This document shows, piece by piece, positions 2,808-7,992 of a stretch of DNA of 29,995 bases. The stretch's first letter is position 1. Each line of letters starts with the position of its first letter. The notes under the pieces were generated by a model. That model was not told where the DNA came from. It ran no database searches and saw only the letters and a program-made list of their open reading frames with translations. The stretch comes from an uncultured bacterium. Lineage in GTDB: Bacteria > Patescibacteriota > JACMRA01. A program made the position numbers and the translations under genes. Location: NCBI GenBank assembly GCA_963784355.1, contig CAWAQU010000011.1:1-29995 (forward strand). Reading direction: 5' to 3'.

Positions 2808-4928
2808 TTATTTGATACAACTCTTTATCCTGTGTTCTACTTCCTCAGTATCTAAAATAGCCAAAATTTCAAAGGGGCTGGGTGATTTTAATTTGCCTGA
2901 TAAGCTAACCCTTAACGGCCAAAGGTAAGACCCTGTATCTTTCTGATTTTCTTGAAGCCAAAGCTTTATTTTAGTCTCAAAAGTCGTAGCTAAATTTAGG
3001 AATTTTTCATTTAAATTAGGTTCAAAAATCGAATTTTTCAGCTCAAGTCTTTCTTGTGATAGCTCTTTTGATAACTCTACTACTACAGGTAGTATGTCAC
3101 TTAGGTTTTGTAAGCTTTCTTCTGTAGTGATTTTTTTCCACTTTAGATCGTCTGCAAGTGGTTTCTGCCAATTCAAAATGCATCCTGATTCCCAACCAAA
3201 TTCAGATAAAACCGTGATTCGATTTTTGTCCAAATTCCAAGCAAGATATTGGGTCTTAATTTGCTCAGTGGGCTCAAAACATGGTAAATTGTGTTGTTTG
3301 CAAAATTCTCTCCAAATGGGGTAGGTAACGAAATCATTGGTTTGAATTACTTCTGAAATGTTGTGCCATTTAAAGATCCAACTTCCATTATCTTCAAGAG
3401 TATATTCATCTAAATCTTCAGTAGAAATCGGATAGAAATAAATATGCATTTCTTTGCCGGTCCAGGTCTTGCCTAAATATTCATAAGGTTCCTTGGCTGC
3501 TAAGCTGAAGTCGGCAATTTTTATAAGTTTGCTTGGATCGATTTTAATTTTTCCATAAGTTTCTTCATCAGTCTCTCTAATCAAATTTTCTATTCCCGTT
3601 TCTCCCTCTTCCCGACCTCCACCAATAGGATAAAATTGACCGTCTCCAGTGACATGATCAGGATTGTTTAGAGTGTGATTCATGAATACTTTTTGTTTTT
3701 CAACATCAATCAAATATACATAATCACCAACTCTCAAACTTTGATCAATCATTTTTTGTTGCAATTTTAGATCAAAGGCCCTAAATGTAAATTCTTCCAA
3801 GCTCATCATCTGAATATATTGCCTGTTGAACCAGTTTAATTTCTCTTGGTTGAATCTTGCAGGAGACCTGGATATTTTCTCTATGCTAAAATCGGCAGCT
3901 AAATTATTTATTAATGTGTTTAGACGTGTTTCGTTTGTGTTTGAAAGTGGTTTGTCTGATAAATCAAAGTCGGCTTGATCCAAATAAATTTCCTTTTCAG
4001 TTCCCGGATTCCAACCTAAAAATACTAAATAATTAATCAAAGCTTCAGGTAAATAGCCCTTATTTAAATAATCTTGCATATTGGTGTTGCCATCACGTTT
4101 GCTCATTTTTTTATTACCGGTCTCACCTAAAATCACAGGTACATGTAAATATTTAGGAACTTCGCCATAATAATCCATAAACATAGTAGTGTGGCGAGCA
4201 AAACTTGCATACCAATCTTGTGAGCCGCGAATAACTAAACTGGTTTCCATTAAACGATCGTCAATAAGATGTGCTAAATGATATGTGGGATAACTATCAG
4301 ACTTTAAAATGACCAAATCTTCTTCCAAGCTCAGATCAAACTCATTTTCTCCTAACAGTTCATCGTAGCATTTTACTTTTTGGTCTCGTTGGATTTTGTA
4401 CATGAGGGCCGGTTTTCTAGGATCTTTTAAACCTGTTTGCACGTCGACGTAAATTTCCTCACCAAATTTTTCTGAATTAATTTTATAATAATTTATAGGG
4501 CGTTTGTTCAGGTTTTTTAATTCCTGGAGCTCTTGTTTGTCTTGTTCGGTAAGGTAATTCCAATAGGCAAGTTTTTTGTCCAACATGTTTTGGGCATGTT
4601 TGTAGTACAGCTCATTACGTTGAGATTGCATATATGGGCCATACTCTCCTTTTTGATAAATACCGTAAAATTCATCTTTTTCACCAAACTCCTCTAGGGT
4701 AATGCCTTCATCAGGACTCAAGCCGATTGAGGATAAAGTTTTGAGCAAAGGGATGACTGCCTCAGGCTGTAGTCTGTTTCTGTCTGTATCGTCCAGCCTT
4801 AAATAATATACTCCATCATTGATTTTGGCAATCAGCTTTGTAAAAAGTACAATTCTGGCAGTACCGATATGTAAATATCCTGTAGGTGAAGGGGCTTGTC
4901 TGGTACGAAACTTTTTTGTGTTTGACAT
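2808..4928 (-). CDS. gltX: glutamate--tRNA ligase with inserted Nudix hydrolase domain
   Basis: RTRQAPSPTGYLHIG (HIGH motif), KKMSKR (KMSKS motif), LGWNPG, C-terminal WPLRVSLSG..SPSPFE; Nudix box GGGREEGETGIENLIRETDEETYG at ~3553-3623; likely start is the ATG at 4928 (MSNTKKFRT), not the TTG at 5003. Confidence 0.95.
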   Translation of the reverse strand: MSNTKKFRTRQAPSPTGYLHIGTARIVLFTKLIAKINDGVYYLRLDDTDRNRLQPEAVIPLLKTLSSIGLSPDEGITLEEFGEKDEFYGIYQKGEYGPYMQSQRNELYYKHAQNMLDKKLAYWNYLTEQDKQELQELKNLNKRPINYYKINSEKFGEEIYVDVQTGLKDPRKPALMYKIQRDQKVKCYDELLGENEFDLSLEEDLVILKSDSYPTYHLAHLIDDRLMETSLVIRGSQDWYASFARHTTMFMDYYGEVPKYLHVPVILGETGNKKMSKRDGNTNMQDYLNKGYLPEALINYLVFLGWNPGTEKEIYLDQADFDLSDKPLSNTNETRLNTLINNLAADFSIEKISRSPARFNQEKLNWFNRQYIQMMSLEEFTFRAFDLKLQQKMIDQSLRVGDYVYLIDVEKQKVFMNHTLNNPDHVTGDGQFYPIGGGREEGETGIENLIRETDEETYGKIKIDPSKLIKIADFSLAAKEPYEYLGKTWTGKEMHIYFYPISTEDLDEYTLEDNGSWIFKWHNISEVIQTNDFVTYPIWREFCKQHNLPCFEPTEQIKTQYLAWNLDKNRITVLSEFGWESGCILNWQKPLADDLKWKKITTEESLQNLSDILPVVVELSKELSQERLELKNSIFEPNLNEKFLNLATTFETKIKLWLQENQKDTGSYLWPLRVSLSGKLKSPSPFEILAILDTEEVEHRIKSCIK

Positions 4929-4999
4929 AGATTGAGCTTGATAATTATACACTTTAAGCTTGTTTAAATCCAGTTTCCTGTCAATTGTGGTATTTTTAA

Positions 5000-5029
5000 G
5001 CAATCAAAAACCGCCCCATGTGGAGCGGC
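5000..5029 (-). terminator. intrinsic terminator, copy 1 of a 30-bp exact direct repeat
   Basis: Minus strand CCGCTCC-ACAT-GGGGCGG-TTTTTG downstream of ORF 5058..5312; identical to 5427..5456. Confidence 0.85.
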
Positions 5030-5057
5030 AAATTTCTAAATTTTTCCTTAATTCGAA

Positions 5058-5312
5058 CTATTCTTCGTTATCATCTTCTTCATTTATTCCTCTTTTCTGA
5101 CTCTTTTTACCTCCAATTCTACCAGCTTTTCTTGCTTCATCTGAAGTAAACTCGTGAGCTGTTCCTCTTTGGTGAGCAATTTTTCCTCCTTTTGATCTAG
5201 CTTCTGTAGTAAGATTCTTCCCATTGTTTTTTCTTCCATCAGTTTTAGTTGCACCATTGGTTGCAGTTGCAGCAAAAAACACGCGTTCAATTAAAATAGT
5301 TTTATTTGTCAT
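5058..5312 (-). CDS. KGG-repeat (GsiB/YciG-like) general stress protein
   Basis: EARSKGGKIAHQRGTAHEFTSDEARKAGRIGG is the KGG stress-repeat pattern; has its own promoter and terminator. Confidence 0.85.
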   Translation of the reverse strand: MTNKTILIERVFFAATATNGATKTDGRKNNGKNLTTEARSKGGKIAHQRGTAHEFTSDEARKAGRIGGKKSQKRGINEEDDNEE

Positions 5313-5426: not shown

Positions 5427-5456
5427 GCAATCAAAAACCGCCCCATGTGGAGCGGC
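5427..5456 (-). terminator. intrinsic terminator, copy 2 of the 30-bp exact direct repeat
   Basis: GCAATCAAAAACCGCCCCATGTGGAGCGGC is identical to 5000..5029; lies downstream of ORF 5496..5738. Confidence 0.85.
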
Positions 5457-5495
5457 CCATACTTAAAATACAATCGAATCTACCTCGTAAACCTT

Positions 5496-5738
5496 TTATT
5501 TTAAACCACTGTTCTTACCAATTTCCTGATAAAGATTATCTCTAATATCTCCATTTTCGTCATTTCCAAATTTTTCTGCTGTTTTCTGTACAGCCATATT
5601 TTTAATTTTTTCTATCTCTTCTTTAGACTTGTTTGCTAGGTTTTCTAGATTTACATTCTCTCCATTGTCATTTGAACTGCCATTACCTGAACTGTTTTCC
5701 AATAAAACTTTAAATAGTCTGTTAATGTTACTTGTCAT
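5496..5738 (-). CDS. small hydrophilic protein, divergent GsiB/KGG-like
   Basis: KTAEKFG...LYQEIGKNSG resembles the GsiB repeat (FYQEIGxKGG); same cassette layout as the neighbouring KGG gene. Confidence 0.65.
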   Translation of the reverse strand: MTSNINRLFKVLLENSSGNGSSNDNGENVNLENLANKSKEEIEKIKNMAVQKTAEKFGNDENGDIRDNLYQEIGKNSGLK

Positions 5739-5888: not shown

Positions 5889-6629
5889 ATGTTACCCGAA
5901 TCAGTGCAAAAACTGGCAGAAAAATTAAGATATTTACCTGGAATTGGCCATCGTGGAAGTATGAAGCTTTCTTTGGATATTTTACAAATGTCGGAAGATA
6001 AATTTAAAGAACTTGAAGTATCATTATACGAAGTCAGAAATAAGATTACTTTTTGCTCAAATTGTGGTTTTTTTGCTCAAGTTATTGCAGATAATAAAAA
6101 TGAGCTTGTATCAGACACCAGAGCAAGCTCTGGACAGAAAAACTTACAGTTTTTGACCCCGTTACAAGCAACGGGGCACTCTGCTACTAATAACAAAGTC
6201 TTATGTGAAATATGCCTAAATAAAAATCGACACAAAAACGAAATTTGCTTAGTAGAGAAACCGACTGATGTTATTACTATTGAAAAAAGTCAGATTTATA
6301 GGGGGTACTATCATGTGTTAAATAATCTTATATCACCTCTTGATAACGTTTTTGCGGAGGATACAAATTTGTCGGATTTGATTGATAGGCGTATTCCCGA
6401 AATGCTAGAAACTAAATCTAATAACGTGGAAATTATTTTATTTTTCAAGCTCGGGTTTGCTTCTCAGGCTACAACAGCATATTTAAAAGAAATTTTAAAG
6501 CAGAAAGGTATTTTAGATTCAGTTAAAATCAGCCGTCTTGCACAGGGATTGCCTATGTATTATAATCCTGACACCTTGGATCAAGCGACTATGGCCAAGG
6601 CTTTAGAAGATAGAAGAGAAGTAGATTAG
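5889..6629 (+). CDS. recR: recombination mediator RecR with an in-frame insertion in its C4 zinc finger
   Basis: HhH LPGIG; CSNC...CEIC zinc finger; Toprim ICLVE..DVITIEKS..YRGYYHVL; KISRLAQGLP; ALEDRR. Confidence 0.93.
   Translation: MLPESVQKLAEKLRYLPGIGHRGSMKLSLDILQMSEDKFKELEVSLYEVRNKITFCSNCGFFAQVIADNKNELVSDTRASSGQKNLQFLTPLQATGHSATNNKVLCEICLNKNRHKNEICLVEKPTDVITIEKSQIYRGYYHVLNNLISPLDNVFAEDTNLSDLIDRRIPEMLETKSNNVEIILFFKLGFASQATTAYLKEILKQKGILDSVKISRLAQGLPMYYNPDTLDQATMAKALEDRREVD
6099..6193 (-). repeat. ~95-bp structured repeat element, copy A (in frame within recR)
   Basis: Three tandem hairpins (CCAGAG/CTCTGG, AAAAACT/AGTTTTT, CCCCGTT/AACGGGG) enclosed by GTATCAGA/TCTGCTAC; ~82% identical to the reverse complement of 6663..6755. 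Confidence 0.9.
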
Positions 6630-6662
6630 TATGAAAATGTATCTTCTGAATTTAAATTAGCT

Positions 6663-6755
6663 TTATTAGTAATCAGAATATCTCGTTGCTTGCAATGGGT
6701 CAAAAACTGTAAGTTTTTGTTTTCAAGCCTGCTTGGGTTCTGATACAAGCTCATT
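6663..6755 (+). repeat. ~93-bp structured repeat element, copy B (recR-rpsA intergenic, inverted relative to copy A)
   Basis: Shares exact blocks of 17, 22, 9 and 9 nt with copy A; same fold (ATCAGAAT/GTTCTGAT outer stem plus three hairpins). Confidence 0.9.
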
Positions 6756-6783
6756 AAATGGAAAAATGTTGCAGTAATTGGAC

Positions 6784-6812
6784 TTGACAAAAACTCAAGA
6801 CCAGCCTAATTA
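6784..6812 (+). promoter_or_regulatory. sigma70-type promoter giving a (near-)leaderless rpsA transcript
   Basis: TTGACA at 6784, 17-nt spacer, AT-rich -10 (TAATTA) ending 7 nt before the ATG at 6820. Confidence 0.55.
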
Positions 6813-6819
6813 TTGATTT

Positions 6820-7992
6820 ATGTCTGAAGTAAAAGAAGTACAGCCGACAATGGCTGACCTTTTAAAACGTGTTGCTAATACTACCGAACTAAATATCGGA
6901 GATCAAATATCAGGAAAAGTTATATTTGTAGCTAAAAATGAAGTTCTACTTGATATCGAAAATGTTGGTTTAGGTATAGTTAGAGGCCGCGAATTATATA
7001 ATGAAGAATATCTTTCAAGATTGAAAGTAGGCGAAACGATCGAAGCCATTATACTTGATCTGGATAATGAATTGGGTATGGCAGAAATGAGTTTCAGAGC
7101 AATAGGTAGAGATAAAATCTGGAGTGAGATCAAAGAAGCTTATGATGCAGGTGTACCTATCGAAGCAAAAATTCGAGATGCAAACAGAGGTGGCTTTTTA
7201 GTTAAAGTACATGGTATAGATGGATTTTTACCAGCATCTTTATTAGCTCCTACCCATGCAATTAAGCAAGTTGGGGTTGAAGATAAAAGCCTTTTGAATC
7301 AAATGAAAAAATACATTGGCCAAATATTCAATGTAAAAATCATAAGTATAAATCCTGAAGCTGACACACTGATTGTATCAGAGAAATCTGTAAGTGATGA
7401 AATTGCTCAAGTTAAACTTAGAAAATATAAAGTTGGTGATATTGTAGAAGCTACTATAGTTGGGGCAGTTGACTTTGGATTGTTTGTTAGATTTGATAGC
7501 GATTTAGAAGGGCTTATTCATATCTCTGAAATTGCTTGGAAAAAGGTGGAAGATCCTAGACAAGGCAATAAAGTAGGCGATAAAGTACAAGCTAAAATAG
7601 TTGAAATTGATAAAGATAACAGAATAAACCTCTCAATAAAACAACTTTTACCAAATCCTTGGATCGAATTTTCAAAAACTACTAAACCTGGAAGTAAATT
7701 TGTCGGAAAGGTAAGTAAAATAGTTTCATATGGAGCTATAGTTGTAAATGATGATGATATACAAGGTCTTTGTCACATTACTCAAATTAGCGAAACTCCA
7801 TTGGAGAGCCCAGCTAAAATACACGAAGTTTTAAAGCTTGGTGAAGTGAGAGAATTTACTGTTTTAGGCATTGACGCTGAAGAAAAACTATATCTGACTT
7901 TGTTAGATTTTGAAAAAGCTAGAGAAATTCAAGACACTTTAGTACAAAAGCAAAGAGAAAAACAAGATGTTAAAGAAGATACAGAGGAATAA
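6820..7992 (+). CDS. rpsA: 30S ribosomal protein S1 (four S1 domains)
   Basis: Four S1/OB repeats (ANRGGFLVKVHGIDGFLPAS; DFGLFVRFDSDLEGLIHISEIAW; SYGAIV...GLCHITQIS). Confidence 0.9.
   Translation: MSEVKEVQPTMADLLKRVANTTELNIGDQISGKVIFVAKNEVLLDIENVGLGIVRGRELYNEEYLSRLKVGETIEAIILDLDNELGMAEMSFRAIGRDKIWSEIKEAYDAGVPIEAKIRDANRGGFLVKVHGIDGFLPASLLAPTHAIKQVGVEDKSLLNQMKKYIGQIFNVKIISINPEADTLIVSEKSVSDEIAQVKLRKYKVGDIVEATIVGAVDFGLFVRFDSDLEGLIHISEIAWKKVEDPRQGNKVGDKVQAKIVEIDKDNRINLSIKQLLPNPWIEFSKTTKPGSKFVGKVSKIVSYGAIVVNDDDIQGLCHITQISETPLESPAKIHEVLKLGEVREFTVLGIDAEEKLYLTLLDFEKAREIQDTLVQKQREKQDVKEDTEE

Follow-up and report, generated by a model that had tools for sequence, protein, structure and literature searches.

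A short structured repeat was found twice, in inverted orientation, in a 29,995-nt stretch of DNA from an uncultured patescibacterium (contig CAWAQU010000011.1 of assembly GCA_963784355.1; hereafter the window), once inside the recombination gene recR (copy A) and once in the spacer between recR and the following S1-domain gene (copy B). The window is contig C11 of a genome designated G000, which comprises 13 contigs and 1.14 Mb with a GC content of ~33%, in an assembly that is 81% complete. The repeat is probably a non-autonomous derivative of an IS200/IS605-type insertion sequence (IS), similar to the palindrome-associated transposable elements (PATEs), which a Y1 HUH transposase acting in trans would have mobilized in single-stranded form. 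This interpretation is based on the copy number of the element, its patchy distribution, its absence from orthologous sites, the lack of target duplication and of coding capacity, and hairpins that carry compensated changes and that match, on the same strand, a model of IS ends.

Copy A occupies positions 6099-6193 (95 nt) and copy B positions 6663-6755 (93 nt). The original prediction had aligned the former with the reverse complement of the latter at about 79 of 96 positions by eye, and a whole-genome blastn search returned the same 79/96 columns (82.3% identity, E 1.7e-17); the exact sequence blocks named at that time were present in both copies. A covariance model of the cloverleaf (R1), built from alignment A1, matched copy A at 6096-6197 (107.1 bits, E 1e-20) and copy B at 6659-6758 (94.1 bits, E 1.1e-17). 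The hairpin loops read CTTG on the minus strand in copy A and on the plus strand in copy B; this strand is hereafter called the top or CTTG strand. On its minus strand, copy A carries a left-end (LE)-type hairpin at 6156-6177 (GCCCCGTTG CTTG TAACGGGGT) and a right-end (RE)-type hairpin at 6118-6133 (CCAGAG CTTG CTCTGG), both identified by a hairpin scan and the latter also by pair counts. A central A/T hairpin (AAAAACT TAC AGTTTTT) lies at 6138-6154, and alignments placed the 5' and 3' arms of an outer stem at 6108-6115 (GTATCAGA) and 6180-6187 (TCTGCTAC). Copy B, located between the recR stop (6629) and the start of the S1-domain gene (6820), showed the same organization on the plus strand: an LE-type hairpin at 6682-6699 (CTCGTTG CTTG CAATGGG; hairpin scan), a central A/T hairpin at 6702-6718 and an RE-type hairpin at 6722-6737 (TTCAAG CCTG CTTGGG) with two G-U/G-T wobbles on that strand, the last two identified from sequence and fold. 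Its outer-stem arm at 6669-6678 (GTAATCAGAA) pairs in the fold with 6738-6746 (TTCTGATAC), and the end-to-end duplex, with a free energy of -12.2 kcal/mol, was equalled by 14/300 shuffles.

The two copies first reported are real, and they belong to a dispersed family instead of forming an isolated pair. R1 gave 12 matches in G000 at E<=1, eight of them full length and four internally deleted or degenerate, and a hidden Markov model (HMM) of seven copies matched 13 places in this genome with E<0.05. Full copies extend from (A/T)AATGAGC to ACTAATAA and are 84-97 nt long. Among the 25 other genomes of the family, R1 detected the element in two, designated G008 (four copies) and G016 (seven copies), which brings the total to 3/26 with G000 and, at class level, to 3/27. 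With the same model, no copy was found in the same-genus genome G001, in the single genome of the class outside the family, or in the 35 genomes that represent other families of the phylum.

Scans with an IUPAC pattern were consistent with this narrow distribution. Among 185,579 species, each represented by one genome, only nine stretches were found, in three records titled Candidatus Saccharibacteria bacterium, Limisphaerales bacterium and Woesearchaeota archaeon. A pattern scan of metagenomes gave four stretches, of which L080 (55.1 bits) and a variant, L078 (22.4 bits, E 0.024), were genuine. The remaining two, L077 and L079, were rejected as copies, since they had no model match and represent chance or coding repeats. 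Phage and plasmid collections contained no match to the element. Some G016 copies were 100% identical, which, as far as sequence identity can tell, points to recent spread in that genome. Copies in G000 were mutually 57-85% identical (mean 72%) and, because no transposase gene (tnpA) was found in the 81%-complete assembly either, they are probably fossils that are no longer mobile.

Insertion sites were examined at the level of individual loci. In a DNA alignment with G001, both copy A and copy B were absent at the orthologous sites, and the spacer between recR and the S1-domain gene was ~100 nt shorter. The longest repeat flanking a copy measured 0-2 nt in 12/12 copies, so that no longer target duplication is present, and the extreme ends (TTATTAG... 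and ...GCTCATT) do not form an inverted repeat. The base preceding TTATTAG was T in 10/12 copies, a preference that is indistinguishable from a conserved end of the element itself, with empty sites too diverged to separate the two. Five of 11 G000 element loci (L015, L018, L021, L033, L034) adjoin recombination or repair genes (recR, ybaB, recA, ruvB and uvrB), a pattern noticed post hoc; elsewhere, such neighbors were found at 1/4 loci in G008 (uvrA, L019) and at 0/7 in G016.

Folding of single copies and comparison among copies gave complementary information on structure. The minimum-free-energy fold of copy B on the plus strand consisted exactly of the outer stem and three hairpins, as expected from the four-way junction originally proposed; other copies, folded singly, did so less consistently (z-scores -0.2 to -4.3). 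The eight full G000 copies alone showed no covariation excess, with pairing in 79.5% of cells as compared to 78.8% in shuffles (138/500 shuffles reached the observed value), and RNAalifold returned for these copies a partial structure of 10 pairs without a covariation term. The stem differences that had been read as compensatory in copies A and B are genuine and, without signal in G000 by itself, found support once copies from G008 and G016 were added. In alignment A2, which contains 24 R1 matches from three genomes (one of them a reverse-strand self-match) and which, being fitted to the model, leans towards structure, 87.4% of cells were paired vs 75.8% after shuffling, and none of 500 shuffles reached the observed value for any of five measures. 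Changes on both sides were found in 22/29 pairs vs 12.3 expected (0/500 shuffles), and sliding the partners by 1-3 columns reduced pairing to 26-47%.

Individual helices contributed differently to this signal. The outer stem (helix 1) was paired in 84.9% of cells, with one pair alternating between GC and AU across lineages, and the central hairpin (helix 3) in 97.6% of cells, the G016 lineage having CCGAAAC/GTTTCGG instead. Other compensatory replacements include CCAAAG/CTTTGG vs CCAGGG/CCCTGG, CCGTTG/CAACGG vs CCGCCG/CGGCGG and AAAAAC/GTTTTT vs CGAAAC/GTTTCG. When 20 copies were aligned with MAFFT alone (A6), only hairpins 1 and 3 were in register; for these, 85.6% of cells were paired vs 77.4% in shuffles (0/500), and 34 cells were changed on both sides vs 12.7 (0/500 shuffles). 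In the four copies tested, the outer stem, 8-9 bp long, was better than most shuffles, 6-15 of 300 doing as well.

Homology to the ends of IS200-type elements was indicated by the two GC-rich hairpins. Both have a CTTG loop closed by a G-C pair, lie on the same strand at 18-19 nt from the ends, and read CC(T/C)NGTTG-CTTG-CAACGGGG and CCAAAG-CTTG-CTTTGG. An intact tnpA in G008 (L081:1513-1857, 114 residues, Y1_Tnp 123.5 bits) is preceded, on the strand of the gene, by the hairpin CCCAGTCG-CTTG-CGACGGGG and followed ~90 nt downstream, on that same strand, by CCTCGCTG-CTTG-CGGCGAGG. Homologues of this TnpA were detected in 27/401 genomes of the phylum at E<=1e-10. In an ungapped scan, eight of the 12 closest tnpA loci had hairpins whose loops read CTTG, TCTTG or CTCTG, no more than 260 nt from the gene and on its strand; at least two further loci have, by eye, the same hairpin with a bulged T. 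These IS-end hairpins are typically preceded by (A)TACC. CTTG hairpins with a stem of at least 6 bp numbered 40 on both strands of G000, seven of which were located in element copies that together make up ~0.1% of the genome.

A covariance model (R2) and a sequence HMM were built from 13 IS-end hairpins of seven genomes, without any element sequence (alignment A4; consensus ATACCCCGCnGCTTGCnGCGGGGT). The top match of the HMM in G000 was an element copy (E 0.027), and 6/22 listed matches were copies, all on the CTTG strand. R2, whose E-values are rough owing to a shortened calibration, matched three copies in G008 (E 5e-8, 2e-7 and 8e-5, with two training sequences excluded), all seven copies in G016 (E 3e-6 to 1e-4) and five in G000 (E 3.6e-5, 0.009, 0.018, 0.59 and 4.1). 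The G000 match with E 0.018 is the LE-type hairpin of copy A, at 6145-6189 on the minus strand; its counterpart in copy B was matched weakly by the HMM (6678-6699, plus strand, E 82). All 15 copies that R2 matched in the three genomes were matched on the predicted strand. The original prediction had proposed a non-autonomous mobile repeat, possibly mobilized by an HUH enzyme, with a functional strand deduced from G-U wobbles and CUUG loops (minus for copy A, plus for copy B). Multiple copies, patchy spread, empty sites and IS-end model matches bear out the first proposal, and the strand agrees with that of the IS-end hairpins relative to tnpA; the substrate is more likely single-stranded DNA than RNA.

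In IS200/IS605 elements, as outlined in PMC5027513, TnpA recognizes subterminal hairpins of the top strand in single-stranded DNA, and a circle is excised and inserted 3' of a short target. The enzyme that moves the element, its passage through single-stranded DNA and its target, as well as the loss of mobility in G000, are inferred. Read along the CTTG strand, which would be the active strand (minus for copy A, plus for copy B), the element consists of a left end of ~18 nt, the GC-rich IS200-type hairpin, the short A/T hairpin, the second G-CTTG-C hairpin and a right end of ~19 nt. A Y1 (HUH) TnpA encoded elsewhere would bind the two hairpins on the CTTG strand where the DNA is single-stranded, for instance at a replication fork, and would cleave both ends, releasing a single-stranded circle. 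This circle would then be pasted 3' of a short target that is not duplicated ("peel and paste").

Several observations weigh against this interpretation. Neither PF01797 (E<=0.01) nor tblastn (E<=1) detected a tnpA in G000, whose assembly is 81% complete. R1, run with filters off on 14 Y1 loci, found no full-length parent IS with matching ends (best E 0.24). R2 matches the GC-rich hairpin only; what the second hairpin has in common with IS ends is limited to its loop and closing pair. Y1_Tnp was present in 13/26 genomes of the family and the element in 3/26, so that presence of the domain does not track the element, and a family-wide association between the two was rejected. The covarying 8-9-bp subterminal outer stem does not fit the clause of the PATE definition that excludes terminal inverted repeats, and neither this stem nor the central A/T hairpin is needed by the textbook mechanism. 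Five full IS elements had no comparable complementarity between their ends (equalled by 12, 51, 69, 205 and 256 of 300 shuffles).

Some of the structural measures are likewise unfavorable. In A6, neither the number of pairs with both-side change (6 vs 5.5 in shuffles, 263/500) nor that of further pair types (14 vs 17.1 in shuffles, 500/500) was in excess. As judged from these alignments, the compensatory changes are real but represent few events, mostly on the branches that separate G000, G008 and G016. Wobble pairs, with 38 A·C cells (G·T on the CTTG strand) vs 22 G·U cells, suggest the CTTG strand as the putative active strand, in an imbalance that is modest and partly attributable to shared descent. 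The orientation of copies relative to GC skew followed the lagging-strand rule in 8/12 cases, which is not significant, and the skew is weak.

Further searches for a transposase gave a similar result. PF01797 had no match in G001, and PF07282 (TnpB zinc ribbon) had none above the cut-off in four genomes. The suggestion that copies might flank a transposase was not borne out: tblastn with the G008 TnpA yielded nothing in G000 or at any element-bearing locus, and no tnpA was located within 1.5 kb of any copy. A 199-aa frame of G016 matches Y1_Tnp weakly (26.5 bits) and has no element-like hairpins alongside. In G007 (C7:29430-32096; L040, L088), an intact IS200-type tnpA (123.5 bits) lies ~1.7 kb downstream of recR, in the neighborhood where G000 has copies A and B, which may be a coincidence.

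Parent IS elements lack both the outer stem and the central hairpin, which compensatory changes have nevertheless preserved in the repeat. The four-way junction might be more than two fused IS ends: the stem and central hairpin could pre-assemble both ends in single-stranded DNA for a scarce TnpA provided in trans, the structure could have been taken over by the host near repair genes, or it could act as a regular source of peptide loops. Such an additional role is considered unlikely. Host takeover would agree with a structure forming in single-stranded DNA and acting on recR, ybaB, recA, ruvB, uvrB and uvrA.

Two copies, out of 23, are intragenic, and both are in frame. The host of copy A, recR (5889-6629, plus strand, 246 codons), was identified from the list of open reading frames (ORFs) and by alignment with relatives, and retains 4/4 zinc-finger cysteines. 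Within the zinc finger, copy A separates the two CxxC pairs; it is in frame and encodes RecR residues ~71-102, thus adding 32 codons without closing the frame. In the 25 other genomes of the family, no recR match spanned the insert residues (~70-98). Matches were instead split into an N-terminal piece that ends at residue 63-69 and a C-terminal piece that begins at residue 99-111, only a few bases apart; for G009, the C-terminal piece alone was matched. The extra block is directly visible in a protein alignment of G000 RecR with 10 relatives, for which 16 loci were tried and six were dropped because a motif filter failed to extract recR.

The second in-frame copy (G008:C33:790-891) lies within the 972-codon frame of a class-I aminoacyl-tRNA synthetase with NUDIX and HAD modules, and the closest orthologue, which has the same architecture (G013), shows a 27-residue gap where the copy is inserted. 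The two intragenic copies are variants of 95 nt whose frame beginning with AAT GAG is free of stops; in most G000 copies this frame terminates at TAA TAA. The terminal TAATAA of copy A is out of the recR frame because its 3' outer-stem arm has one base less than that of most copies, as indicated by alignments and by stop counts per frame. An AlphaFold2 model of the window RecR, with 14 relatives as alignment, had a mean pLDDT of 71.8; residues 69-100 had a pLDDT <50 and no secondary structure. At this moderate model confidence, the insert is predicted to form a disordered loop and RecR to be ordinary elsewhere, and the 32 residues are most likely tolerated and not put to use. The insertions in the two genes are independent and tolerated.

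Other inserts and fusions were encountered in recR and in synthetase genes. In G011, recR (C38:2229-3257; L063/L064) forms a 359-codon frame with another in-frame insert, of ~210 nt, that separates residues 177 and 178, and the N-terminal piece of alaS (C72:4479-7394) has an in-frame insert of ~2 kb in a 980-codon frame; inteins or intervening elements of another kind are possible explanations. A 731-aa ORF on the minus strand of the window (2808-5003) resembles glutamyl-tRNA synthetase and contains, by eye, a Nudix-box-like stretch. Together with the G008 class-I synthetase with NUDIX and HAD domains (C33:322-2391; L013), this makes synthetase-hydrolase fusions seem recurrent in the lineage.

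Among known systems, PATEs of Haloquadratum walsbyi are the closest in kind; PMC3119063 describes them as derived from IS605-type transposons, too short to encode a transposase, with near-terminal palindromes related to those of IS605-type elements, and with neither target duplication nor terminal inverted repeats. A comparison with the element, made by description, can be drawn from that account (PMC3119063). Both are transposase-free by length, have similar near-terminal, IS200/IS605-like palindromes, leave no target duplication, show strain-specific insertions, and occur in genomes with copies but no intact transposase. As PATEs are described there, they differ from the element in their host (a haloarchaeon vs a patescibacterium) and in their number, with hundreds of copies vs 4-12 per genome here. 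The element, in addition, has a central hairpin and a covarying outer stem, whereas PATEs are defined without terminal inverted repeats, and two of its copies lie in frame in genes.

The accounts of IS608, ISDra2 and the IS200 group (PMC5027513, PMC3201880) describe, as in the element, subterminal hairpins on one strand at both ends and no target duplication. The hairpin class (A)TACC-stem-CTTG-stem is common to IS200-type elements of the same phylum. Relative to IS200/IS605 elements as characterized in those accounts, the element has no tnpA or tnpB and is ~95 nt long vs ~0.6-2 kb. To our knowledge, there is no sequence relation between the element and the Rickettsia palindromic elements (RPEs). 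RPEs, as summarized in PMC10969869, are likewise short palindromic repeats that occur both between genes and in frame in unrelated housekeeping genes, to which they add a peptide. That summary gives their mobility mechanism as unknown, whereas the element has IS200-type ends, and puts about half of the copies in three of ten RPE families within genes, vs 2/23 for the element (PMC10969869).

An origin as a classical miniature inverted-repeat transposable element (MITE), with a DDE transposase acting on double-stranded DNA and recognizing subterminal GTAATCAGA ... TCTGATAC as terminal inverted repeats, would explain why the ends are complementary over 8-9 bp, why they covary between lineages and why their duplex is better than most shuffles (6 to 15/300 equal it). 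The element also resembles the bacterial MITEs Correia/NEMIS, ERIC and RUP which, in the overview of PMC10969869, are small, non-coding, dispersed, strongly folding and sometimes intragenic, and depend on a transposase in trans. Classical MITEs as outlined there are bounded by terminal inverted repeats, and a DDE enzyme creates their target duplications; here, the complementarity is subterminal, a target-site duplication >2 nt was found in 0/12 copies, and it is IS200-type ends that the inner hairpins match. Partial matches of nhmmer and the covariance model did not reveal a longer element sharing the ends of the repeat, in a search that included no scan aimed at DDE transposase families. A DDE origin is therefore very unlikely.

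Preservation of the four helices by compensatory changes would equally be expected of a structured non-coding RNA (ncRNA), be it a small RNA or a cis-regulatory cloverleaf, with a fold maintained by its function, and the location of 5/11 G000 loci beside recombination or repair genes is compatible with such a role. A CUUG loop closed by G-C is, moreover, a stable RNA tetraloop. Copies inside the reading frames of recR and an aminoacyl-tRNA synthetase gene, empty orthologous sites in the sister genome G001 and a spread limited to 3/27 genomes of the class are difficult to reconcile with this explanation, and likeness to IS ends accounts for the hairpins. Where flanking genes are co-directional, the CTTG strand was antisense at 7/9 copies and sense at two. 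Rfam 15 placed only two tRNAs above the gathering threshold in the window, none at the element, and with E up to 10 on 6000-6850 gave only chance-level snoRNA or sRNA matches; ARAGORN found nothing at the copies. A tRNA, a tmRNA or another known RNA family is thus rejected, in agreement with the original view that the element is not a tRNA and is not recognizable as a known family, which holds as far as Rfam and the literature search extend. The ncRNA alternative, also raised at that time, gained no support from these results and is regarded as highly improbable. A repetitive extragenic palindrome (REP) is a single hairpin unit of 20-40 nt or occurs as an inverted pair, two inverted REPs forming a bacterial interspersed mosaic element (BIME), and the Y1 gene of the REP-associated tyrosine transposase (RAYT, TnpA-REP) is often flanked by REPs. 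A REP/BIME-like repeat kept by such a domesticated enzyme, and not by an IS transposase, would share with the element hairpins that resemble IS200/IS605 ends and a dependence on a Y1 HUH enzyme, according to the accounts of PMC3333891 and PMC8266576, and a weak Y1_Tnp match does exist in G016. The element is, however, one unit of ~95 nt with conserved ends and two hairpins on the same strand, as in the left and right ends of an IS, and its copy number is low (4-12 per genome). Moreover, G000 had no RAYT-like or other Y1 gene detectable with PF01797 or tblastn, and the Y1 gene of G016 has no element-like hairpins beside it. This explanation appears the least probable of those considered.

Some additional observations concern the surroundings of the copies. 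The cloverleaf in G016 forms the middle of a composite repeat of ~330 nt with conserved flanks on both sides. R2 also matched six more places in G016 outside the cloverleaf copies (E 1e-4 to 0.03), and other IS200-type relics are therefore likely in that genome. Copies A and B are inverted within one direction of transcription (recR, then the S1-domain gene), so that a read-through RNA could form an imperfect duplex of ~95 bp around the last 470 nt of recR. Upstream in the window, a 41-nt direct repeat with 88% identity (5000-5040 and 5427-5467) appears on the minus strand as a GC-rich hairpin with a T run, terminator-like, behind the minus-strand ORFs 5058-5312 and 5496-5738. Copy C9:40984-41074 adjoins a truncated alaS in G000 and was discarded as the cause of the truncation, since the N-terminal catalytic piece of alaS is a separate, stand-alone frame of 301-354 aa in 24/26 genomes of the family. 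In G000, this piece is located at C9:41073-42011 (L028:1590-2528, minus strand) and the next, which has frame breaks, at C13:20102-20754, on another contig.

The element family appears to be undescribed, and the kind of element, an IS200/IS605-derived miniature, is already known. A literature search found no paper that joins Saccharibacteria with IS200 or with miniature inverted-repeat elements; for names of the candidate phyla radiation (CPR) combined with IS200/IS605, the sole title among the matches listed that mentions IS200/IS605 concerns another subject. The present interpretation gives a testable identity to a repeat without Rfam match, one that is able to break or mis-join assemblies, and the 32 residues added to RecR should be annotated as repeat-derived and not as a new domain. 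It would also mean that the very small genomes of one patescibacterial (CPR) lineage contain miniature derivatives left behind by single-strand transposition of the IS200/IS605 type, for which no describing paper was found. In-frame insertions have hit two genes of essential type, encoding the zinc finger of RecR and a class-I aminoacyl-tRNA synthetase. This behavior is best known from RPEs, whose movement is not understood; here, the ends indicate a known enzyme family, and the phenomenon is therefore open to study at the bench. If the related, less probable reading of the junction as a source of peptide loops were true, such elements would regularly supply new peptide loops to the tiny proteomes of these bacteria.

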